The position numbers and the translations under genes are program-made. A model generated the notes under the pieces. That model saw nothing but the letters and a program-made list of their open reading frames with translations. It was not told the origin of the DNA and searched no databases. A stretch of 64,000 nt of DNA from Acidobacteriota bacterium (GTDB lineage: Bacteria > Acidobacteriota > UBA6911 > RPQK01 > JAJDTT01): contig CBDCLS010000006.1 of the NCBI GenBank assembly GCA_965218775.1, positions 962,071 to 1,026,070 on the forward strand, in the 5' to 3' direction. How positions within the stretch are numbered: position 1 is the stretch's first letter; each line of letters opens with the position of its first letter. Below are positions 1,983 through 26,085 of the stretch, one piece after another.

Positions 1983-4436
1983 TCAGTGAACTTCGGGGCG
2001 TTCGCCTCCTTCAATCGGGGGAGGCTGCTGTTTCTCGACAAACTTCTTCTGCTGTTTCCGACCCTTTCTGTTGATGGGCTGTTCCAGGGCGATGTCGAGA
2101 ACCTCGTCCATGGTATCAACCAGGACGATCTTGATTTCCTCCAGGACTGAATCAGGGATCTCTTTTAGGTCCTTTTCATTCTCTTTGGAGAGAACGACGG
2201 TCTTGATGCGGGCCCGGTGTGCGGCAAGAATCTTTTCCTTGACGCCACCGATGGGAAGGACCTTTCCGCGCAAGGTGATCTCACCGGTCATGGCCACGTC
2301 ACGACGCACCGGGATGCCGGTGAGAGTCGAGACAATAGTTGTGGCCATCGTGATTCCGGCCGAAGGGCCATCTTTGGGTATGGCGCCTTCGGGGACATGT
2401 AAATGCATGTCCAGGAACTTGTGAAAATCCTTGGCCAGACTGTATTCGTTACTACGGGATCGTACGAAGGAAAGAGCCGCCTTTGCGGACTCTTGCATTA
2501 CCTCACCCAACTTCCCAGTCAGCAGGAGGTCGCCCTTTCCCTGCATAGTCGTGGCTTCGGTGAGCAAGACCTCGCCCCCGACTTCGGTCCAGGCCAGGCC
2601 AGTGGCCAAGCCGATCTCGTTGGCCTCGGTCGCCATCTGGGTTCGGTATTTGGGAACGCCGAGAAATTCTCGGATAGTCTTGTCCTCGATCTTGTATTCC
2701 TTGGTTTCGCTTTTTTTGGGCTTCCTGCCAACGACGATCTTGCGCGCCACCTTTCGACAGACGCTTCCGATCTCACGCTCCAGGTTTCGAACGCCGGACT
2801 CTCGCGTGTAGTGACGGATGATTTCCTGGATGGCCTCTTCCTTGAAGTCAAGTTGAGCAGGTTTCAGGCCGTTGGCCTTCTTTTGTTTGGAAACCAGAAA
2901 CTGAATGGCGATGTTGAGCTTTTCGAGTTCCGTATAGCCTGAGATCTCAATGACCTCCATCCGGTCCTGCAGTGGGCGAGGAATGCTGTGAAGGACGTTC
3001 CCGGTGCAAATGAAGAGCACTTCCGAGAGGTCCAACTCAGTGTCGAGATAGTGGTCGACGAAGGTAGCGTTGTGTTCCGGGTCCAAGACCTCCATCAAGG
3101 CAGCCGAGGGATCGCCCCGAAAATCCATGCTCATCTTGTCTACTTCATCTAGGAGAAAGACCGGATTCTTGGTACCGGCCTTCTTCATCATCTGGACGAT
3201 TTGGCCCGGCAGGGCACCGATATAGGTGCGCCGGTGTCCCCGGATCTCGGCTTCGTCCCGGACTCCACCCAGCGAGAGGCGAACAAACTTGCGACCGGTG
3301 GCACGCGCAATGGATCGTCCCAGCGAGGTCTTGCCTACTCCGGGAGGGCCGACGAAACATAGGATGGAACCCTGACTCCGCTTGCGTACCAGCTGTCGGA
3401 CCGCCAGGAATTCCAGGACCCGCTCCTTGACTTTCTCAAGGCCGTAATGGTCTTCGTTCAGAACTTTTTCGGCACGGTTGATGTCCCGGATCTCGCGGCT
3501 TCGTTTGGTCCAGGGCATGGAAACGAGCCATTCCAGATAGGTCCTGCTCACAGTCGTCTCCGCGCTCATGGGAGGCATTTGTTCCAGGCGTCGAATTTCG
3601 TTGAGCGCCTTGTCCTGGGCATCCTCCAGCATCCCGGCTTCGTCGACTTTTTTCTTTAGCTCCTCAATCTCGTCCTTTTCGCCTCGTCCCAGCTCTTTCT
3701 GAATCGCCTTGACCTTTTCATTCAGGTAATACTCGCGCTGGGCCTTTTCCATCTGCCGCCGGACTCGCCCCTGGACTGACTTGTCCATCTTGATCTTCTC
3801 GATCTCGACCTCGATGAACTCACAGATCTTTTCCATCCGTTCGGCCGGGTTGACGACTTCCAGCAGGGCCTGCTTGTCTTCGACCGCAATCGGGAGGTTG
3901 GCGGCAATGGTGTCCGACAGCCGTTCTGTCTCGGTACTGCGAGCCGCCTGCGCGATGGTCTCGTAATTGATATTCGGGTTCAACTTGGCGAATTCTTCGA
4001 ACAGGAGGTTGAGGCGCTTGGTCAGGAGCGCGATTTTGGCGTGGGACGCTTTCGGGACCGCCTCGAAACGCACCTGGGCCTGAAAGTATTCCTCCATCTC
4101 GTGCACTTCGACAGTGCGCGCCCGGCGAAAGCCCTCGACCAGGACCTTGATATTCCCATCAGGGAGTTTGAGGCTCTGGACGATGTTGGCAACCGTTCCC
4201 ACACTGTAGATATCCTTGGGAGAAGGGTTGTCCTGGGAGGCGTCCTTTTGAGTCGCCAGATAGATCTTCTTGTCCCGACGCAGAGCCACTTCGAGTGCTA
4301 CCACAGAGGAAGCTCGGCCAATCACGAAGGGAACCATCATGGAGGGAAATACAACGACGTCCCGAATCGGCACCATCGGATAGGTGGCGGGGGTGTCGTC
4401 ATCCAAAAGTTTGATTTCGGGCTCGGTGTCAGTCAT
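1983..4436 (-). CDS. lon: ATP-dependent protease Lon (La)
   Basis: 817-aa ORF with a Lon N-terminal domain, an AAA+ module (GPPGVGKTS) and a C-terminal serine protease domain (PKDGPSAG). Confidence 0.93.
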
Positions 4437-6633: not shown

Positions 6634-7938
6634 TCATTTTTCCAGAACCTTCGCACCATCGAGGATGACGTCGAGGGCTTTGCGCCTTCGGATCTGATCC
6701 ATCAGGCCTTCCCTGCGACTGTCCTCCTGGAAGTGCTGTCTCACCTTATCTATCGGCTGATTCGTCGATTCGGCCAGACCTTCCAGCTCTTCGCCGATTT
6801 CCTGGGAGGAAACCTCGAATCCCTCCTGGTCCGCAATCTTCCCCAATATCAGCCCTGCTCTCGTCTCTTTTTCGGCAGCTGCTCGGAGATCCGATCTCAT
6901 GCTGGCCCAGTCCAGGTTTGCCTTGGTGGGGTTGAGCCCTTGTCTCGCCATGTCGTAGGCCAGGTCTCTCACCTTATCGTCAATGCGGCGTTCAACCAGA
7001 AGCTCCGGTACTTCAAAATCGGTCGCCTCAATCAGCTTTTGCACCAACTGTTGTCTCAAATTGCTGGTTCGGTTGTGCTCCAGCTGGTGGCTGAGCTCCT
7101 CTCGAATCTTATCTTTCAGCTTATCAAGGTTCTCGAAATCACCGAGCCCACGAGCAAATTCATCGTCAAGATCGGGAAGGTCCAGTCGCTTGATGTCGTT
7201 CAGACGGACGCTGAATTGGAGGCGGTGGCCGGCCAGCTTCTCTTCTGGGTAGTCGGCGTCGTAAGTTGCCTCGAAGGTCTTGTCCTGTCCCACGTCCATT
7301 CCCTTAAGGGCTTGGTCAAAGGATTTATGGGTGTGCTCGCCGCCCAGTTGGAGTGTTGCGCCTTCTTCTTCGATCGGTTCGACGGTCTTCCCGTCTGGAT
7401 CCTGGTCCAGGTACTCCCCCTTCAGGTCCACTGTGACGTAGTCCCCATCAGCCGCAGTTGTTCGACCACTCACTGCCACCAGGGGGGCTTGACGTTGCCT
7501 CATTTTCTCGAGCTGCTCCTCCACCATTCCTTCCGTCAACGCCTCGGTGGGAACGCGCACCTCCAGGCCACTGTACTCCGGAAGTGCGATCTCGGGCAGA
7601 ATCTCGACCTGAGCTTCGTATTGCAGGGACGCGCCTTCTTTGAAAGAGAGCTGCTCAATCCTCAGGTCCCCCAGCGGTTTGACCTCCCGTTCACGGAGCG
7701 CCTGGTCATAGGACTCGGGAATCAGGCGTTGCAAGACATCCTGGCGGATATCCTTTTGAAATCGACGCTTTACCAGCTGCAGAGGAGCTTTGCCGGGACG
7801 AAACCCAGGGAGACGAGCATGTTTCCTGTAATCGTTAGCGATCTGGTTGAACTCTTTCCCTGCAACCTCGGCTGACACTTCTACCTTCAGCTTCTTCTTG
7901 ACCGGGCTGATGTCTTCCACTTCGAGACGAATATCCAT
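6634..7938 (-). CDS. tig: Trigger factor (ribosome-associated chaperone/PPIase)
   Basis: 434-aa ORF with an N-terminal ribosome-binding region (GFRPGKAP motif) and an FKBP-type domain. Canonical tig-clpP-clpX-lon order. Confidence 0.9.
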   Translation of the reverse strand: MDIRLEVEDISPVKKKLKVEVSAEVAGKEFNQIANDYRKHARLPGFRPGKAPLQLVKRRFQKDIRQDVLQRLIPESYDQALREREVKPLGDLRIEQLSFKEGASLQYEAQVEILPEIALPEYSGLEVRVPTEALTEGMVEEQLEKMRQRQAPLVAVSGRTTAADGDYVTVDLKGEYLDQDPDGKTVEPIEEEGATLQLGGEHTHKSFDQALKGMDVGQDKTFEATYDADYPEEKLAGHRLQFSVRLNDIKRLDLPDLDDEFARGLGDFENLDKLKDKIREELSHQLEHNRTSNLRQQLVQKLIEATDFEVPELLVERRIDDKVRDLAYDMARQGLNPTKANLDWASMRSDLRAAAEKETRAGLILGKIADQEGFEVSSQEIGEELEGLAESTNQPIDKVRQHFQEDSRREGLMDQIRRRKALDVILDGAKVLEK

Positions 7939-19558: not shown

Positions 19559-22500
19559 TCAGGGGCCGTCTGTGCTGGCCTCGAATCTGGTTCGGACATA
19601 CTCCTTGGCGTCCTCCGGCCCCAGGCGAATACTGCCGGGGCCGCTGCGGACGTAGAGGTCGCCCATCTCGGATTTCTCCACACCCTTCCAGCGCAGATAG
19701 ACCGGCTCGGGACTGCGCTGGCAGCTCACCAGGCAAACAGTCTTCCCTGAGACGATTTGGGTCGTCGGGTCGATGCAGGTGCCAGTGCGGTCGCCCAGGC
19801 CGTTTCGGACGACCTGAGCCAGGTGGCGCATGAACTTGTCCTCGTTCTCCAGCCGGTCGCGCTCGATCCCCAGGACGGTCCGATCGTCGGCCACCCCAAT
19901 CAGGAGATCGCCCCCCTCGGTGTTCAGGAATGCGGCGATGGTCTTGAGGACGGCGTGAGTGACTTGTTGGTCATCCTTCCGGTCCTCCTTCAGGTTCCAG
20001 CGCAGGCTCGACTTGAACTCCAGGGTCTTGGACTCCTGGAGCTTGAGAAGCTCCTCCGCACGCCGGTGACGGCGAATATAGTCGTCGAAGAGGAGATTCT
20101 TGAGCGCCTGACCGAAGGCCGGGTCATCGGTGATCCGCTTGTAGAGCTCGAAGTTGGTCTCGACGATCTCCTGGATCTTGTCTTCGACTTTGGGGTCGAA
20201 GGTGAGCCGTACATTCTCCCGGGTGTTGACGCGGGCGCTGGCACCGAGGCCGGCATCCTGGTCCAATGCGTCCCGGATTTGTTCCAGGGTGATCTTGTGC
20301 TCAGGGCCCAGGTTCAGACCGAAGCGCTCATTCAGGTCGGCGATGATCTGGGAAAGCGGCTCGACCTCCTCCGCTCCCTTTCCGTGGTGGGCCTTGCTTC
20401 GCATCGGATCGAGCTGGCCCGCTCGGCGCTCCAAGGCGATCCTGCCCCGGCTGGTCTCCTGGATCCGATAGGACTCCATGTCGATATTCTGTTGGACCTC
20501 ACGCGGGAGTCCCTCGCTATCCCCGGGCAGAAGGCGTCGGAGATATCTGGCGAAGACATAGAGCTTCTCCAGGTCCAGGTCGGCGAAGGTGAGCACCTGG
20601 GACAGGAAGGCATAGAGGCGCACATAATCCCGAAGCTGACCCCGAAAGTCCGGTTGCTCTTCGGGACTGATCTCACCGAATCGCTGCCGGACCGGCTCCA
20701 GGGCCGCGTAGAGCTGGTCCTGGGTGGCCTTGGGATCGAAGTAGAGGCGGGCGAAGGCCTCCACGTCCTCGCCGGTGTAGACACCGAACTCCAGGAGCCG
20801 CCCTTGCACCTCGTACAGGAGGTTGGGATCGGTCTCCTCGGAGAGGAGCGTCGTCTCGTAGAAGGGCTCGAAGGCCTTGCGGATCTCCTCGGCCTCGTTA
20901 GCAAAGTCTACGACCATGGTTCCGGGCTTGCCACCGTGAGTCCGGTTCAATCGCGACAGGGTCTGGACCGCGTTCACGCCGCCCAGCTTCTTGTCCACGT
21001 ACATGGTGTGCAGGAGGGGCTGATCGAAGCCAGTCTGGAACTTGTTGGCCACCACCAGGAAGCGATTGGCAGGTTTGTCGAACTCTGCCGCCGTCTGACG
21101 CTCACCGATCACGTGCTGCCTCCCGGCGGAGTTCGTGCCAGACTCGGTGTATGCCTCCCCGCCGTCGCGAACGGTGCCAGAGAAAGCCACCAGGCTCTTC
21201 CAGGGATGGCCGTTCTTCTCCAGATAGCGGTCCAGGGCCAACTTGTAGCGTACGGCGTGCAGACGCGAGCGGGTCACGATCATGGCCTTGGCGCGCCCGC
21301 CGATCTGATTCTGCACCCGGGAGGCGAAATGCTCCACCATGATGGCGATCTTCTCCTGGATGGCGTGAGGGTGAAGATCGACGAACGACTTCAGGAGATA
21401 CGCGGCCTTGTTCTTGTCGTAGTGGGGGTCGTTCTCGATGGTCTTGAGGAGCCGCCAATAGGCCTTGTAGGTCGTGTAGTTCTGGAGGACATCCAGGATG
21501 AAGCCCTCCTCGATGGCCTGGCGCATGCTGTAGAGGTGAAAGGGCTCGAACTTCCCGTCTTCTCGCCTGTTACCAAAGAGCTCCAGCGTCTTTGGTTTGG
21601 GCGTGGCCGTGAAGGCGAAGGTCGAGAGGTTCGGAAGCCGGCCACGCTTGCGGATCTCCTCGAGGACCGTATTCTCGAGCTCCTCCTCGGGAGTCTCGGC
21701 TCCGGCCTCCTCCTGTTCTGCCTCATCGAGGCTCGAGGAGGACAGGACCGCCTTCAGGCTCTTCGTGCTTTCGCCCGACTGGGAGGAGTGGGCCTCGTCC
21801 ACGATCAGGGCAAAGCGCTGGCCGGGAAGCTCACCGATCTGTTCGGCGATGACCGGGAACTTCTGGAGTGTGGTGACGATGATCGTCCGGCCCGATTCCA
21901 GGGCTTCCTTGAGCTGGCGCGAGGTCTGATCGATGTTCTCTACCACCCCCAGGGTCTGCTCGAATTGGCGGATCGTGTGTTGGAGCTGCCTGTCCAGGAC
22001 GCGCCGGTCGGTCACCACCACGATGGAATCAAAGACCCGGCGATCCTCGACATCATGGAGGGTCGAGAGCTGGTGGGCCAGCCAGGCGATGGTGAAGCTC
22101 TTTCCGCTGCCGGCCGAGTGCTGGATCAGGTAGCGCTGTCCGGTCTCATGGCTCCTAGCATGCCCAACCAGCCGTCGCACCGAATCGAGCTGCTGGTAGC
22201 GGGGGAAGATCAGAAAGCGCCGACCAGTCTTGCGACCCTTCTCGCTCTCCTCTTCCACCTCATGGATGAACTGGCGGATCAGGTCCAGGACGCTGTCCCG
22301 AGCCCAGATCTGCTCCCAGAGGTAGGCCGTCGGATAGCCCGCCCGAGTGGGTGCTACCGGAGGATTCCCTGCCCCACCGAAGCGGCCCTGATTGAGGGGT
22401 AGAAAGCGGGTCTTGATGCCGGCGAGGCGTGTGGTCACGAACACCAGCTCCGGGTCCACGGCGAAGTGGGCCAGACAGCGCCGATGCGCGAAAAGAGGCT

Positions 22501-23107
22501 GCCGGGGGTCGCGGTCGTTGCGGTACTGGGTAATGGCGTCCTGGACGTTCTGTCCATTGAGAGGGTTCTTGATCTCGGCAGTGAAGATGGGAATCCCGTT
22601 CAGAAGGATGGCAAGATCCAGGCTCTGCTCGTCCTTCTGGCTAAAGCGAAGCTGGCGTACCACCGAGAAGAGATTGGCTGCGTAGAGACGTTGGGACTGT
22701 TGGTTGAGTCCGCTGGCCGGCCGAAAATAGGCCAGGTGGAAACGGCAACCTGAATCCTTGATGCCGCTCCGTAGTACGTCGAGAGACCCCCGCCGACCGA
22801 TCTCCCGTGAGAGCCGCCCCAGGAAGCGCTCCTTCACCTCCAACCCATGATGTTGACGAAGCTTCTCCCACTCTTTTGCCTGGGTAGCCAGGAGGAAGTC
22901 GATCACGTCCTTGGGAATGAGACAGAGCCCGCGGTCGTAGCCCTCGGGACTCCTCTTCAGGTAGCCCCCCGGCACTGGATCGTAGCCGTAGGAAGGCACC
23001 GACTCCCGCACCTCGATGACATCACCCGGGCAGGCGTCTGGACCATTCTCGAGCAACGCGCATTCGATTGCCTCCTCAAAGGCGCGTTCGGTGACTTCAA
23101 CCGTCAT
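19559..23107 (-). CDS. hsdR: Type I restriction enzyme R subunit (HsdR) with a C-terminal Schlafen/AlbA_2-like putative DNA-binding domain
   Basis: 1182-aa ORF with helicase motif I (GSGKSFT) and a DEAH box (IVDEAHSSQ). The last roughly 165 aa (KTLEFKSSL...FLNTEGGDLLIGV) resemble AlbA_2. Its start overlaps the hsdS stop (ATGA). Confidence 0.88.
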   Translation of the reverse strand: MTVEVTERAFEEAIECALLENGPDACPGDVIEVRESVPSYGYDPVPGGYLKRSPEGYDRGLCLIPKDVIDFLLATQAKEWEKLRQHHGLEVKERFLGRLSREIGRRGSLDVLRSGIKDSGCRFHLAYFRPASGLNQQSQRLYAANLFSVVRQLRFSQKDEQSLDLAILLNGIPIFTAEIKNPLNGQNVQDAITQYRNDRDPRQPLFAHRRCLAHFAVDPELVFVTTRLAGIKTRFLPLNQGRFGGAGNPPVAPTRAGYPTAYLWEQIWARDSVLDLIRQFIHEVEEESEKGRKTGRRFLIFPRYQQLDSVRRLVGHARSHETGQRYLIQHSAGSGKSFTIAWLAHQLSTLHDVEDRRVFDSIVVVTDRRVLDRQLQHTIRQFEQTLGVVENIDQTSRQLKEALESGRTIIVTTLQKFPVIAEQIGELPGQRFALIVDEAHSSQSGESTKSLKAVLSSSSLDEAEQEEAGAETPEEELENTVLEEIRKRGRLPNLSTFAFTATPKPKTLELFGNRREDGKFEPFHLYSMRQAIEEGFILDVLQNYTTYKAYWRLLKTIENDPHYDKNKAAYLLKSFVDLHPHAIQEKIAIMVEHFASRVQNQIGGRAKAMIVTRSRLHAVRYKLALDRYLEKNGHPWKSLVAFSGTVRDGGEAYTESGTNSAGRQHVIGERQTAAEFDKPANRFLVVANKFQTGFDQPLLHTMYVDKKLGGVNAVQTLSRLNRTHGGKPGTMVVDFANEAEEIRKAFEPFYETTLLSEETDPNLLYEVQGRLLEFGVYTGEDVEAFARLYFDPKATQDQLYAALEPVRQRFGEISPEEQPDFRGQLRDYVRLYAFLSQVLTFADLDLEKLYVFARYLRRLLPGDSEGLPREVQQNIDMESYRIQETSRGRIALERRAGQLDPMRSKAHHGKGAEEVEPLSQIIADLNERFGLNLGPEHKITLEQIRDALDQDAGLGASARVNTRENVRLTFDPKVEDKIQEIVETNFELYKRITDDPAFGQALKNLLFDDYIRRHRRAEELLKLQESKTLEFKSSLRWNLKEDRKDDQQVTHAVLKTIAAFLNTEGGDLLIGVADDRTVLGIERDRLENEDKFMRHLAQVVRNGLGDRTGTCIDPTTQIVSGKTVCLVSCQRSPEPVYLRWKGVEKSEMGDLYVRSGPGSIRLGPEDAKEYVRTRFEASTDGP

Positions 23108-24468
23108 GCCACCTCCTCCCGGACGTCGATCTTGCCGGTGACCGCCGCGGAGATCAGGGCAGTGCGGAATTCTTTGAGGCGGTCGATGGCTTCACGGTTC
23201 TTGCCGATTAGCTCATGGATCTTGACCGTCTCTTGGTCGAGGAGGTGGGTGATCATCTTTTGCTCTTGCATGGATGGAAGGGGCGTCTCGATTTCGAAGA
23301 ATGCATCTGCATAGAGGCGGAGACGCGATCTCCACACGCCCTTGGACCGTCGAATGATCTCAGCAACGTGGAGGGGAATCCGGCACAGATAGTCGTAATA
23401 CTTTGGATCAAGCTCGGCCGAGGTGACCGCATAGACGTTGTAGGAAGGGCTGACCATTCCGTCCTCTTTGGTAACTCCCAGCGCACCCATCCATGCCCAC
23501 ATTGTGTTAATCGCTAGTTGGTTTGCGTCGCAGATCTTGTAGCCCTCATGTGATTCCGCTTCGATCATAGTCACGTCGGGCTTTTCAGAACGCGGCGTTA
23601 CGCCTGTGATGTGCGACACGGTTAACAACTGTTCTGCGCCTACCTCAGACCTGAGATCCGTCTCTCGAAACAACCAACGGTTCTTCTCGGTGGACCAATG
23701 CGGCGGGATCTCACCCAACCACTCCACACCAGAGTCCTTCATGGGAACATTCCGGTCGAGGCCTCGGGTAACGGCACGCGTGATGAGGGCGGTGCGCTTT
23801 TCCTGGAGCAGCTCTATGAGCCGCTCCTTCTTGGCCACCAGCGCGTCGATCTTCGCCGTCTCGCGGTCGAGGAATGCAGCGATGACGCTTTGCTCCGCCT
23901 TATTCGGGAATCCGGCACCCTCACTGAGATAGCTGGCACTGTCGAGATTCTGGATGCCTGTGCTCTGCTTGATTGACCTCGTATTGATTCTGGCCGCATA
24001 CATCGATGAGTGAACGTAGGCCAGAAACCGTGGATCAAAGCTGTCCTCTACCGGCATGCGAGCGATGAAGTTCGAGCAGACTGCTCTCTGTTGGTACTCG
24101 AAAAGGACAACTACTCCGACTGGATGCTTGTCTCCACCACCCGACTTCTCGAGAAGCAGATCGCCGGGATGGAGCCCCCTCGTTTGCACGATCTTTGGCT
24201 CTACCGAACGAAGAGTTGGCTCATCGAGCTTGACTCGGAGTGCCACACGATCAAAGTCCGCCACACGCACACACGTAACATCATTCACTTCACCTGGATC
24301 CTCGCCCCACAACCCGTTTTGACAGCCGGTAACAGTCGATCTGAGCCGTTTAATTGCCCAATGTGCAGGCATCTGCCCTATCCACTCCACGCCCGACTTC
24401 TTGTAGTCCGGATACGGCCGAAATCGCCGGAGTTCGGCCACGTGGTCCCGCTCTAGCGCTTCAGACAT
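23104..24468 (-). CDS. hsdS: Type I restriction-modification specificity subunit (HsdS), two target-recognition domains
   Basis: Conserved central and C-terminal coiled-coil repeats (RETAKIDALVAKKERLIELLQEKRTALITRAVT / QETVKIHELIGKNREAIDRLKEFRTALISAAVTGKIDV). The probable start is the MSEALERD methionine at 24468, overlapping the abiEii stop by 8 nt. Confidence 0.85.
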   Translation of the reverse strand: MSEALERDHVAELRRFRPYPDYKKSGVEWIGQMPAHWAIKRLRSTVTGCQNGLWGEDPGEVNDVTCVRVADFDRVALRVKLDEPTLRSVEPKIVQTRGLHPGDLLLEKSGGGDKHPVGVVVLFEYQQRAVCSNFIARMPVEDSFDPRFLAYVHSSMYAARINTRSIKQSTGIQNLDSASYLSEGAGFPNKAEQSVIAAFLDRETAKIDALVAKKERLIELLQEKRTALITRAVTRGLDRNVPMKDSGVEWLGEIPPHWSTEKNRWLFRETDLRSEVGAEQLLTVSHITGVTPRSEKPDVTMIEAESHEGYKICDANQLAINTMWAWMGALGVTKEDGMVSPSYNVYAVTSAELDPKYYDYLCRIPLHVAEIIRRSKGVWRSRLRLYADAFFEIETPLPSMQEQKMITHLLDQETVKIHELIGKNREAIDRLKEFRTALISAAVTGKIDVREEVA

Positions 24469-25423
24469 CGCCCTGATCTCCTTCGTTCCGATAGGCAGCA
24501 GGCTGCCAGGGACCACCGGCGGGCCAGAAGCGCGGGAACGGCTCACCGTCGATCAAGGCGTCCCAGAGTGGCCCGAGAAATCGTCGCAGTTCCTCTCCCA
24601 AGTCCACGAACCGTGCTGGCCCGTATCCCTGACGCTCAACCTGACGCTGGAACTCCTGCCAGCGCCCTGCCCTCATGGAATCCTCGTAGAATGCTGGCTG
24701 AAGCGCCTCGGGCACATCTTTGCTGAGCGCGGTGCGCCGCCGCCGGAAGGTTTCGCCAATTGCTGTGGAAAGAGTCTCCCCGTCGAAGGCGAAGTGCCGC
24801 GCCAAGACCGCAATGTCCCAGAAGTCCCTGAGGCGCGAGTTGGATCGGCCCAGGCGAACCATCGCCTCACACTTCTCGGCCACGAAGGTCTCTCGAGGAT
24901 AAGTCCATAGGAGAGGGGCCGGATGGTACAGAAGCGTGGGGTACTCCCGCTGTTCCCGTCCGGGCGTGACGACATCGCCGAAGCCCAAGTCTGCCTGAAC
25001 GGCCAGGCGCACTTCTCCGAGCTCCCCTCCCAATCGCACACGCATACCACCATACTCCTGCTCGCCGCGAATATCCTCGATCCGCATGCTCGCCGGATCG
25101 AAGACGACTCCGTCCTCGGGGCAAGGCACCGCGCAAATCGCCTCCATCCCCAGGCGGATGCCTGCGCGATCCTCTCTGCCGCTGGCGAGGAAGTCCACAT
25201 CGTGCGTTGCTCGGAACTGTCTTCCAGTCCATACGAGGAAGAGGGTGGCACCCTTGAGCGTGAAGTGGTCCACTTCAGCCGAGAGTCCCAGCCGATAGAG
25301 AAACCGCTCGATTGCGTAGCGTTGGAGCACGAGGTTGAAATCTGATCGCTCCTCTCTCGCCAGGTTCAGGAGTCGCTGCCGAACCGAGGCCGGAACATTG
25401 CGGATCTTTCCCGTGGCCATCAT
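24461..25423 (-). CDS. abiEii: AbiEii/AbiGii-family nucleotidyltransferase toxin (type IV toxin-antitoxin / abortive infection)
   Basis: Hallmark N-terminal region IRNVPASVRQRLLNLAREERSDFNLVLQRYAIERFLYRL plus a DUF1814 nucleotidyltransferase fold. The MMATGK start overlaps the abiEi stop (ATGA). Confidence 0.8.
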   Translation of the reverse strand: MMATGKIRNVPASVRQRLLNLAREERSDFNLVLQRYAIERFLYRLGLSAEVDHFTLKGATLFLVWTGRQFRATHDVDFLASGREDRAGIRLGMEAICAVPCPEDGVVFDPASMRIEDIRGEQEYGGMRVRLGGELGEVRLAVQADLGFGDVVTPGREQREYPTLLYHPAPLLWTYPRETFVAEKCEAMVRLGRSNSRLRDFWDIAVLARHFAFDGETLSTAIGETFRRRRTALSKDVPEALQPAFYEDSMRAGRWQEFQRQVERQGYGPARFVDLGEELRRFLGPLWDALIDGEPFPRFWPAGGPWQPAAYRNEGDQGDV

Positions 25424-26085
25424 GCGCTTATCGCCTCCAACGCCGGACCGAGGAGGGAGCGAGCGCGGCACACCTCGGCAGCGCGCCAGATCTCGTCGGC
25501 TGTAGCCTTGCGCTGATACAATGCATCGCGCAGCGCCTCGTACGCCACGTCGTGGCCCACGAGCCGGCGCAAGCGGAAGCAGTCCACCACCGTACGTCCC
25601 GGATTCGTGATGCGAGCTGGGACTCCCTCGAACAGGATCTTCTCGACACCATAGCGAAGAGTCACCCCAGTGAACCGGACGACCCTAGTCGAGAACTCCG
25701 GAATGAGCGGGACCCGAGCCTTGTGGGGGATGGCGATCCAGACCTGGCGCGGCAACTGCGTCCCGAGTTCATGCACCCTCAGAGCCGACAGCAGACAGAC
25801 AATGCCCTTGGGAGCACGAGCGCACACGGCAGCGAGGCTGTAGTCCACAGTGGGCTCGGCATCGGCCAGGCGATAGAGGCCGCGGCCCACCCGCTCTACG
25901 CGACCTTTTTCGATCAGTCGTCGAAGGTCTCGCGATCCGAGGCCCAGCTCTGCCGCGTCACGCGGGCGGAAGAAGTTCCCGGCTCCGACCGCCCTGAGGC
26001 TCTCGGCCGTCAGTTGAGGAACAGAGACGGCCACTTGTTGCAAAATGTTGGCATTGGAAAATTCTTGCTGACCTTTTGATTCCAT
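25420..26085 (-). CDS. abiEi: AbiEi-family antitoxin / transcriptional regulator (COG5340)
   Basis: 221-aa ORF with an N-terminal winged-helix (RPRDAAELGLGSRDLRRLIEKGRVERVGRGLYRL). It lies immediately upstream of abiEii with overlapping stop and start. Confidence 0.78.
   Translation of the reverse strand: MESKGQQEFSNANILQQVAVSVPQLTAESLRAVGAGNFFRPRDAAELGLGSRDLRRLIEKGRVERVGRGLYRLADAEPTVDYSLAAVCARAPKGIVCLLSALRVHELGTQLPRQVWIAIPHKARVPLIPEFSTRVVRFTGVTLRYGVEKILFEGVPARITNPGRTVVDCFRLRRLVGHDVAYEALRDALYQRKATADEIWRAAEVCRARSLLGPALEAISA

Follow-up and report, generated by a model that had tools for sequence, protein, structure and literature searches.

The stretch of DNA analysed in this work (hereafter, the window) comprises 64,000 nucleotides (nt) of an Acidobacteriota bacterium genome (assembly GCA_965218775.1, contig CBDCLS010000006.1, positions 962,071 to 1,026,070 of the forward strand) and contains a type I restriction-modification (R-M) operon, whose restriction subunit, HsdR, carries a Schlafen (SLFN_AlbA_2) domain at its C terminus. 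Judging from its sequence, this tail is apparently a catalytically competent Schlafen domain, and it is appended to an otherwise complete HsdR protein. In the textbook view, type I restriction enzymes act on DNA only, and the Schlafen nuclease, in other bacteria as well as in humans, counters viruses via tRNA cutting. We favour, with a probability of roughly 55%, the reading in which the tail would serve as a catalytic, RNA-directed backup effector on a type I restriction enzyme. The tail was already pointed out in a first-pass annotation of the window, which placed it at positions 19559-20055; these coordinates are correct and correspond to roughly residues 1018-1182 plus the stop codon, and the peptides quoted there, KTLEFKSSLRWNL and AAFLNTEGGDLLIGVADDRTVLGIE, are present in HsdR.

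The identity of the tail was established with several tools. The Pfam model SLFN_AlbA_2 (PF04326) matched the whole HsdR with E=8e-19 (68.8 bits, at a gathering cutoff of 25.3) and the isolated tail of 179 amino acids (aa) with E=2.8e-20 (73.4 bits), and the protein ends 21 residues past this domain. The AlphaFold2 model of the tail, for which an alignment of nine diverged HsdR-fused tails was the input, reached a mean predicted local distance difference test score (pLDDT) of 85.3 and a predicted template modelling score (pTM) of 0.84; an alignment of 60 close homologues (70-83% identical) gave a pLDDT of 45.8 and was unusable. The predicted structure consists of a linker helix, with lower pLDDT over its first 10 residues, followed by a domain with the two-layer alpha+beta Schlafen fold. 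When this model was compared with PDB by the use of Foldseek, 26 matches with E<=1e-3 were obtained, all of them to Schlafen/AlbA_2 structures, and the next matches had E>=0.1. The matched structures were DIP2311 (3lmm), the DNA-binding AlbA_2 domain of SAMD9 (7ksp), SLFN11, SLFN13, SLFN14, SLFN12, SLFN5, and 2kyy. Moreover, the profile built from the nine HsdR-fused tails matched human SLFN14 (E=1.2e-12) and the bacterial tRNase CbCash (E=7.8e-6). The AlbA_2/Schlafen identity that the first-pass annotation gave to the C-terminal ~165 aa is therefore borne out by the Pfam match, the predicted structure (pLDDT 85) and the Schlafen-only Foldseek result, and agreement of this degree goes well past anything that chance would give. 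Public databases already annotate PF04326 on HsdR-Schlafen proteins. When the isolated tail or the profile of diverged tails served as the query, sequence searches returned only fragments from the clade of this HsdR.

Three elements are typical of the Schlafen nucleases, i.e., the E(x)4(E/D)xK motif, the 'SAFAN' box, and a Gly/hydrophobic strand with a third acidic residue (PMC13056530; bioRxiv 10.64898/2026.05.29.728809), and all three are intact in the HsdR tail. In the alignment based on the nine fused tails, ESKTLEFK falls on E206/E211/K213 of SLFN14, and the deposited SLFN14 mutant chains E211A and E206A/E211A appear there as the matching substitutions. The strand GGDLLIGVADD aligns with GGYVLIGVDDK of SLFN14 (D248/D249), and D1074 thus corresponds to D249. 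The profile of close homologues matched pig SLFN11, in which ESQSIEFK is aligned to the tail motif. The two glutamates and the lysine of the motif are invariant in nine HsdR-SLFN lineages whose tails share 25-43% identity with that of the query. In the close family, E1025 is kept in 73 of 74 members, while E1030, K1032 and D1074, as well as N1062, G1065 and G1066, are kept in all 74, and the Ex4ExK motif was found in 80 of 81 related loci. The Nei-Gojobori dN/dS ratios (non-synonymous to synonymous substitution rates) were 0.15-0.17 for the tail and 0.17-0.20 for the core, which shows that the tail is under purifying selection as strong as that acting on the core. As the Schlafen motif and the PD-(D/E)xK, Walker A and DEAH motifs are equally invariant, HsdR appears to carry two intact nuclease sites together with a motor.

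The remaining part of HsdR is that of a complete restriction subunit. Pfam matches comprised HSDR_N at residues 143-208 (49.8 bits, cutoff 25.1), which indicates the N-terminal PD-(D/E)xK nuclease, SWI2_SNF2, ResIII and DEAD at residues 302-544 (each above its own cutoff), which indicate the superfamily 2 (SF2) helicase/translocase, and a T1R_D3-like match at residues 682-736. The PADLOC model REase_I also matched HsdR (E=1.6e-35). The score obtained with TIGR00348, the NCBIfam hsdR subfamily model, was 217.2 bits, i.e., under the cutoff of 284.55, which suggests that the protein belongs to a divergent, poorly modelled subfamily. Both the PADLOC and the TIGR00348 models span residues 143-751 only, and the PDB match likewise covers residues ~143-751. 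No Pfam match was found for residues 741-1010 (best E=0.13), and these constitute the normal C-terminal region of HsdR, since tail-less HsdRs align there end to end. Residues 1-46 are missing from most relatives.

A search with HsdR residues 1-1010 against 1.84 billion representatives clustered at 50% identity yielded 12,258 relatives, the best 150 of which form one HsdR subfamily and align to the query from residue ~47 to ~1008. The tail-less relatives (38-57% identical; 960-1020 aa) stop where the core ends, just before or inside the linker helix, and residues ~750-1003 of the query reach to their very end. The nearest of them are P0241 (57% identity, 990 aa), P0242 (57%, 1019 aa), and P0244 (53%, 977 aa), which terminate 8-16 residues beyond the aligned region. 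It follows that the Schlafen domain was appended to a complete HsdR, without any substitution. The first-pass annotation had proposed that the module stands in place of a canonical HsdR C-terminal region; this has to be rejected, as residues ~750-1003 align with the final part of the tail-less proteins. It had also named the uniform presence of the extension across the subfamily as the finding that would speak against its proposal, and the survey of homologs did not reveal such uniformity: P0241, P0242 and P0244 have no tail, and the possibility of a uniform subfamily domain was rejected, given that the SLFN tail was identified in just eight of the 150 nearest representatives (P0247, P0254, P0258, P0259, P0264, P0265, P0269, and P0290).

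Within this subfamily, the distribution of the Schlafen tail is clearly patchy. In a rough neighbour-joining tree of 131 near-full-length cores, the SLFN-tailed members occupied at least five separate places among the tail-less ones. Altogether, 22 of the 150 representatives were at least 1090 aa long, and in one of them, P0313, the extra length is N-terminal. A clade of five proteins (P0322, P0347, P0350, P0362, and P0379) carries a different tail domain of ~200 aa with a conserved HDR motif; the Pfam treble-clef zinc finger PF23477 was recognised in P0322 and P0350, there was no match in the scanned P0347, and P0362 ends before the Cys-rich segment. The tails of P0321, P0345, P0373, and P0330 share the motif WRNDNAH/WRNESGH (Rx4H, HEPN-like). 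No significant Pfam match was found for these Rx4H tails, the best being the sub-threshold HEPN_RiboL-PSP (E=0.2), and their reading as HEPN domains is a hint only. An ASCH domain was found in one representative, P0345, which also bears the Rx4H motif, and several further long representatives have C-terminal tails with no domain assignment in Pfam. With Schlafen and other tails scattered in this way, the HsdRs of this subfamily have a variable accessory slot at their C terminus. It is also worth mentioning that P0258 (1329 aa) is a triple fusion of the HsdR core, a Schlafen domain (E=5e-18) and a C-terminal LexA-like Peptidase_S24 domain (E=4e-7), and the last of these hints that the tail might be released by self-cleavage or in connection with the SOS response.

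In the query's own clade, PF04326 was present in all 120 of the best protein matches among 90%-identity clusters (79-100% identical). The scan of species-representative genomes revealed 357 stretches encoding relatives, of which the best 80 loci were examined; the tail was encoded in all 80, with 71-82% identity to the query. These best 80 loci come from Acidobacteriota, Gemmatimonadota, several proteobacterial classes, Actinomycetota, Methylomirabilota, Planctomycetota, Spirochaetia, Latescibacterota, and Myxococcota, among others, and such a degree of identity across many phyla indicates horizontal spread. No fused HsdR-SLFN was found in the plasmids of the PLSDB database. A tail-like region (29.5% identical, E=1e-16) was recognised at positions 65445-66074 of the Pseudoalteromonas nigrifaciens plasmid NZ_CP011038.1, within an annotated N-6 DNA methylase, and the remaining PLSDB matches to the tail were DUF262 proteins and Schlafen proteins described as 'ATP-binding'.

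Based on the above, the following scheme may be proposed. HsdR combines a PD-(D/E)xK DNA nuclease, a translocase of the SF2 type driven by ATP, and the C-terminal region common to such subunits with a putative single-lobe Schlafen endoribonuclease, appended via a short helical linker. The tail would be freed from an inactive state when foreign, unmodified DNA engages or overwhelms the R-M complex, when two complexes collide, or when an anti-restriction factor of a phage inhibits restriction; it would then cleave tRNA, and the resulting halt of translation would constitute an abortive or backup layer of defence. As the characterised single-lobe prokaryotic Schlafens work only as a two-lobed, horseshoe-like dimer, the pairing of two tails is a plausible switch; the two HsdR tails could belong to both R subunits of a single R2M2S1 complex or to R subunits of complexes that collide. 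We infer the RNase activity of the tail, by analogy, from the conservation of the motif and from precedents (PMC13056530, PMC13462974), and tRNA as the substrate, a link between cleavage and the state of HsdR, and a switch by dimerisation are conjectures of the same kind. That the state of the restriction motor gates the tRNase in cis, and consequently that restriction and abortive infection are both performed by one polypeptide, is a tentative proposal, which we hold to be possible rather than probable.

Several points weigh against the interpretation of the tail as a backup effector. An intact motif proves neither activity nor substrate, and SLFN5 and the AlbA_2 domain of SAMD9 also bind DNA. 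The trigger (stalling, collision or anti-restriction) is pure inference, and a constitutively tethered toxic RNase would have to be kept silent by some means. The structural model covers the tail alone. The parallel with HEPN-like tails rests solely on the Rx4H motif and the sub-threshold Pfam match mentioned above. Finally, a literature search, which did not cover the published architecture tables of prokaryotic Schlafens (pSlfn), found no description or test of an HsdR-Schlafen fusion.

Pfam and NCBI have historically labelled AlbA_2 as a putative DNA- or RNA-binding domain, database names of the type 'putative DNA binding domain-containing protein' and 'RNA-binding domain-containing protein' follow this usage, the AlbA_2 domain of SAMD9 was crystallised with DNA (7ksp), and SLFN5-N binds DNA (7cux). 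All this would suit a tail that is a non-catalytic DNA/RNA-binding or sensing module, which modulates recognition, processivity or regulation of restriction. We consider this unlikely, as it leaves unexplained the near-absolute conservation of the metal-binding acidic residues (E1025, E1030 and D1074) and of K1032; moreover, all motif-bearing prokaryotic Schlafens characterised so far are nucleases, and mutation of the motif kills defence (PMC13056530, PMC13462974, bioRxiv 10.64898/2026.05.29.728809). The same applies to the role envisaged in the first-pass annotation, i.e., a nucleic-acid sensor giving restriction an extra recognition input: the nuclease signature E(x)4(E/D)xK and the following Asp are intact and essentially invariant and, taken together with the prokaryotic Schlafens shown to be tRNA-cleaving effectors, they make an extra output (RNA cleavage) likelier than an extra input. 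A catalytic tail might, on the other hand, be a second nuclease whose target is not host tRNA but invader single-stranded DNA (ssDNA), R-loops or phage transcripts that emerge close to the translocating enzyme, which would strengthen direct restriction with no abortive infection. The translocase to which the tail is attached sits on the foreign DNA itself, the catalytic residues of the tail are intact, and in mammals rRNA and mRNA are further Schlafen substrates, with ssDNA bound as well (PMC13462974). However, the substrates of prokaryotic Schlafens have so far been tRNAs, and HsdR already has a conserved PD-(D/E)xK DNA nuclease, so that this role seems quite improbable to us; it should be stressed that the sequence data do not discriminate between substrates, nor do they separate an invader-directed nuclease from the backup effector that we favour.

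The universal presence of the tail within the clade of at least 70% identity (120/120 best proteins and 80/80 best loci) could also mean that it is the ordinary C-terminal structural or assembly domain of this subfamily, which docks to the methyltransferase core or dimerises the R subunits and has no separate function. This is very improbable, as the closest tail-less HsdRs (53-57% identical) are complete without it and are accompanied by hsdM and hsdS, SLFN-tailed members turn up at five or more separate points of the tree, with unrelated tails in other members, and a conserved nuclease active site is not needed for assembly. The probability that the fusion is an artefact of a frameshift, read-through or misassembly of two genes is negligible. 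Nothing was found in favour of it; the open reading frame (ORF) is continuous in the window, two public sources contain an identical protein, encoded on contigs of 0.48 Mb and 3.16 Mb, and full-length collinear matches occur in genomes from many phyla, with selection on the tail as strong as on the core. Given the same continuous frame in 80 other genomes and in all 120 best protein matches, an artefact was rejected.

Prokaryotic Schlafens were described in 2025-26 as experimentally confirmed tRNA-cleaving effectors fused to sensors (PMC13056530, PMC13462974, bioRxiv 10.64898/2026.05.29.728809). The attached module switches them on and gives them their specificity. They include RorSlfn5, a tRNA-cleaving phage-defence Schlafen fused to an Ig-like sensor (PMC13056530), CbCash, a Schlafen tRNase with Csx15 and cA4, in which single lobes pair (PMC13462974), and RzAgo (SLFN-pAgo), with an Argonaute and a GHKL ATPase, in which dimerisation is needed to rebuild the bilobal nuclease (bioRxiv 10.64898/2026.05.29.728809). 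The HsdR tail shares with these three nucleases the single-lobe SLFN_AlbA_2 domain, the E(x)4(E/D)xK motif, the Schlafen box and the GG-hydrophobic-GV-D strand, and, like them, it is fused to a larger infection-sensing module and encoded among defence genes. It differs in its partner, which is a complete type I R subunit and not an Ig-like, Csx15, GHKL-ATPase/Argonaute, histidine-kinase or helix-turn-helix (HTH) module, in the C-terminal position of the Schlafen domain, and in that the activity, the substrate and the trigger are here presumed. So-called Schlatpases combine Schlafen with a GHKL ATPase; HsdR has no match to PF13749, whereas a gene found in one of the related loci (L082, described below) has both domains.

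Among R-M systems, Schlafen modules have been recruited in other ways, such as the Poribacteria Schlatpase-HsdS fusion (bioRxiv 10.64898/2026.05.29.728809) and the Schlafen-methyltransferase fusions (PMC13462974, cluster 3), and this likeness extends to the L082 Schlatpase and to the N-6 DNA methylase of NZ_CP011038.1 found in this work. Those S- or M-subunit fusions and standalone Schlafens occur mostly with a GHKL ATPase, in contrast to the R-subunit fusion described here, in which the only ATPase is the HsdR motor. Schlafen and HsdR are each of a known kind, and links of Schlafen with R-M have already been reported for S, M and neighbouring genes. Of the known restriction subunits, EcoR124I HsdR (PDB 2w00, 7bst) represents the sole PDB family matched by the whole protein (E=5.8e-14), and has HSDR_N, the SF2 motifs and the hsdM/hsdS operon in common with it; the protein analysed here represents a divergent subfamily and has an extra Schlafen tail of 179 residues.

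Suicidal RNases that back up DNA-targeting systems are also known, e.g., PrrC/RloC and HEPN domains fused to R-M helicase subunits (PMC3710099); for BREX loci, this theme has been published with RNases of the Schlafen, HEPN and PIN types (PMC12839542). The arrangement proposed here would resemble PrrC/EcoprrI and RloC, where an RNase directed at tRNA lies dormant, coupled both physically and genetically to a type I enzyme, as a backup for the case that restriction is countered (PMC3710099). PrrC is, however, a separate protein (ABC-type ATPase plus HEPN) encoded within the hsd operon, whereas the Schlafen domain is covalently fused and shows no homology to it; PrrC is known to be activated by an anti-restriction peptide (PMC3710099), which for HsdR is a conjecture. 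Pfam and PADLOC found no ABC ATPase or HEPN domains of the PrrC/RloC type among the operon genes, and the analogy concerns function only. The mammalian group III Schlafens (SLFN11, SLFN13, and SLFN14) have a homologous catalytic C-lobe and also unite a Schlafen nuclease with a DNA-contacting helicase-type NTPase. Unlike HsdR, with its single PF04326 lobe located after an SF2 motor that carries its own DNA nuclease, they have the N and C lobes in one chain and a C-terminal SF1/DUF2075 helicase. The Schlafen-plus-helicase combination in HsdR and in mammals is convergent, not inherited.

The HsdR-Schlafen proteins extend the recent findings on prokaryotic Schlafens into classical restriction, with a function that is predicted only. 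If the proposed reading is true, the restriction motor itself would be the sensor, and restriction and translational shutdown would be layered in one protein, in a simple and genetically tractable form. HsdR-Schlafen would then be an analogue of PrrC/EcoprrI in which the RNase is a Schlafen domain and is covalently attached, spread horizontally through many phyla as an hsdM-abiE-hsdS-hsdR cassette, and it would provide bacteria with a parallel to human SLFN11, whose tRNA cleavage is triggered by DNA. If the tail is a binding module only, we are dealing with an ordinary variant of domain architecture. The variable C-terminal slot (Schlafen, Schlafen plus S24, ASCH, zinc-finger, HEPN-like) suggests a general route by which restriction enzymes may gain accessory effectors. 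The family is abundant, as close relatives were found in no fewer than 357 genomes at the species level, from many phyla, and it is very well conserved, which makes it a realistic experimental target.

In the window, hsdR is the last gene of a five-gene minus-strand operon, hsdM-abiEi-abiEii-hsdS-hsdR, and the co-operonic hsdM and hsdS genes typical of type I R-M systems are thus present on the same strand as hsdR. The stop codon of hsdS and the start codon of hsdR overlap in the sequence ATGA, and the operon is flanked by housekeeping genes, including those of pyruvate carboxylase and flagellin. The coordinates of all features are presented in Table 1. The gene calls deposited in the database are somewhat different for two of the genes, i.e., hsdS (454 aa, 23104-24468) and abiEii (320 aa, 24461-25423).

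Table 1. Genes of the type I R-M operon and functional elements of HsdR in the window
Feature	Position in the window	Strand	Basis
hsdR, 1182-aa restriction subunit with C-terminal Schlafen tail	19559..23107	-	ORF; public database entry P0001 is the exact protein
HsdR core (aa 1-1003): nuclease, SF2 motor, C-terminal helical region	20099..23107	-	end-to-end alignment with tail-less HsdRs
PD-(D/E)xK DNA-nuclease motif, D164...E178-I-K180	22565..22618	-	conserved in 74/74 aligned family members
Walker A / helicase motif I, AGSGKS, aa 332-337	22097..22114	-	G335 and K336 in 74/74
DEAH box / helicase motif II, VDEAH, aa 436-440	21788..21802	-	DEAH in 74/74
Linker helix, core to Schlafen domain, aa 1004-1021	20045..20098	-	helix H2-18 in the AlphaFold model
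Schlafen / AlbA_2 domain, aa 1025-1161	19625..20035	-	PF04326
Putative Ex4ExK catalytic motif ESKTLEFK (E1025, E1030, K1032), aa 1025-1032	20012..20035	-	aligned to SLFN14
Schlafen box AAFLN, SAFAN counterpart, aa 1058-1062	19922..19936	-	aligned to SLFN14 SAFAN
Gly/hydrophobic core strand and third acidic residue, GGDLLIGVADD, aa 1065-1075 (D1074)	19883..19915	-	aligned to SLFN14
hsdS, specificity subunit	23104..24546	-	PADLOC Specificity_I E=4e-105; Pfam Methylase_S
abiEii, nucleotidyltransferase toxin	24461..25471	-	PF08843 E=5.8e-40; PADLOC AbiEii E=1.8e-96
abiEi, antitoxin/regulator	25420..26085	-	PF13338 E=2.5e-12; PADLOC AbiEi E=1e-64
hsdM, methyltransferase, 712 aa	26171..28309	-	N6_Mtase E=4.6e-55; HsdM_N E=6e-24; PADLOC MTase_I E=2e-267

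The operon context was then compared among the related loci, 55 of which had hsdM upstream and 51 of which could be used for counting the hsdS-hsdR gap. Both abiEi and abiEii were located between hsdM and hsdR in 35 of the 55 loci, one of the two genes was present in 11, and neither in nine. This insertion of AbiEi/AbiEii (type IV toxin-antitoxin / abortive infection) recurs across many phyla, which indicates that the five-gene cassette travels as a unit. The hsdS-hsdR gap was at least 900 nt long in 22 of the 51 loci. The operons of tail-less relatives still hold hsdM and hsdS, and in two of them the slot between these genes is occupied by another module. In locus L082, a standalone 'Schlatpase' gene (Schlafen plus HATPase_c_4; 2509-4200, plus strand) resides there, the start of which overlaps the hsdM stop codon and the Ex4ExK motif of which is intact (EAVGREFK); in locus L083, a PIN-domain toxin is encoded in the same slot (3981-4391, plus strand). 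The embedded toxin genes, considered together with the HsdR tails, show that this type I lineage habitually carries toxin or RNase modules, which is in line with the backup role that we favour for the Schlafen tail.

Some further observations concern individual genes. In locus L005, the hsdS-hsdR gap contains a Fic/DOC gene with a C-terminal HTH (6821-7891, plus strand; Fic E=8e-17), and hsdM is followed by genes for an extra HTH_3 protein and a second AbiEi-like protein. The HsdM protein of the window is unusually long, with ~270 C-terminal residues (~436-712) past the N6_Mtase match that have no Pfam domain; its whole length is nonetheless covered by the single PADLOC MTase_I model. An ORF of 881 aa is located antisense to hsdR (19757-22402, plus strand), and further long antisense ORFs are present in this region of 58-62% GC; the long antisense ORFs around hsdR most likely arise as a side effect of codon usage in GC-rich DNA.

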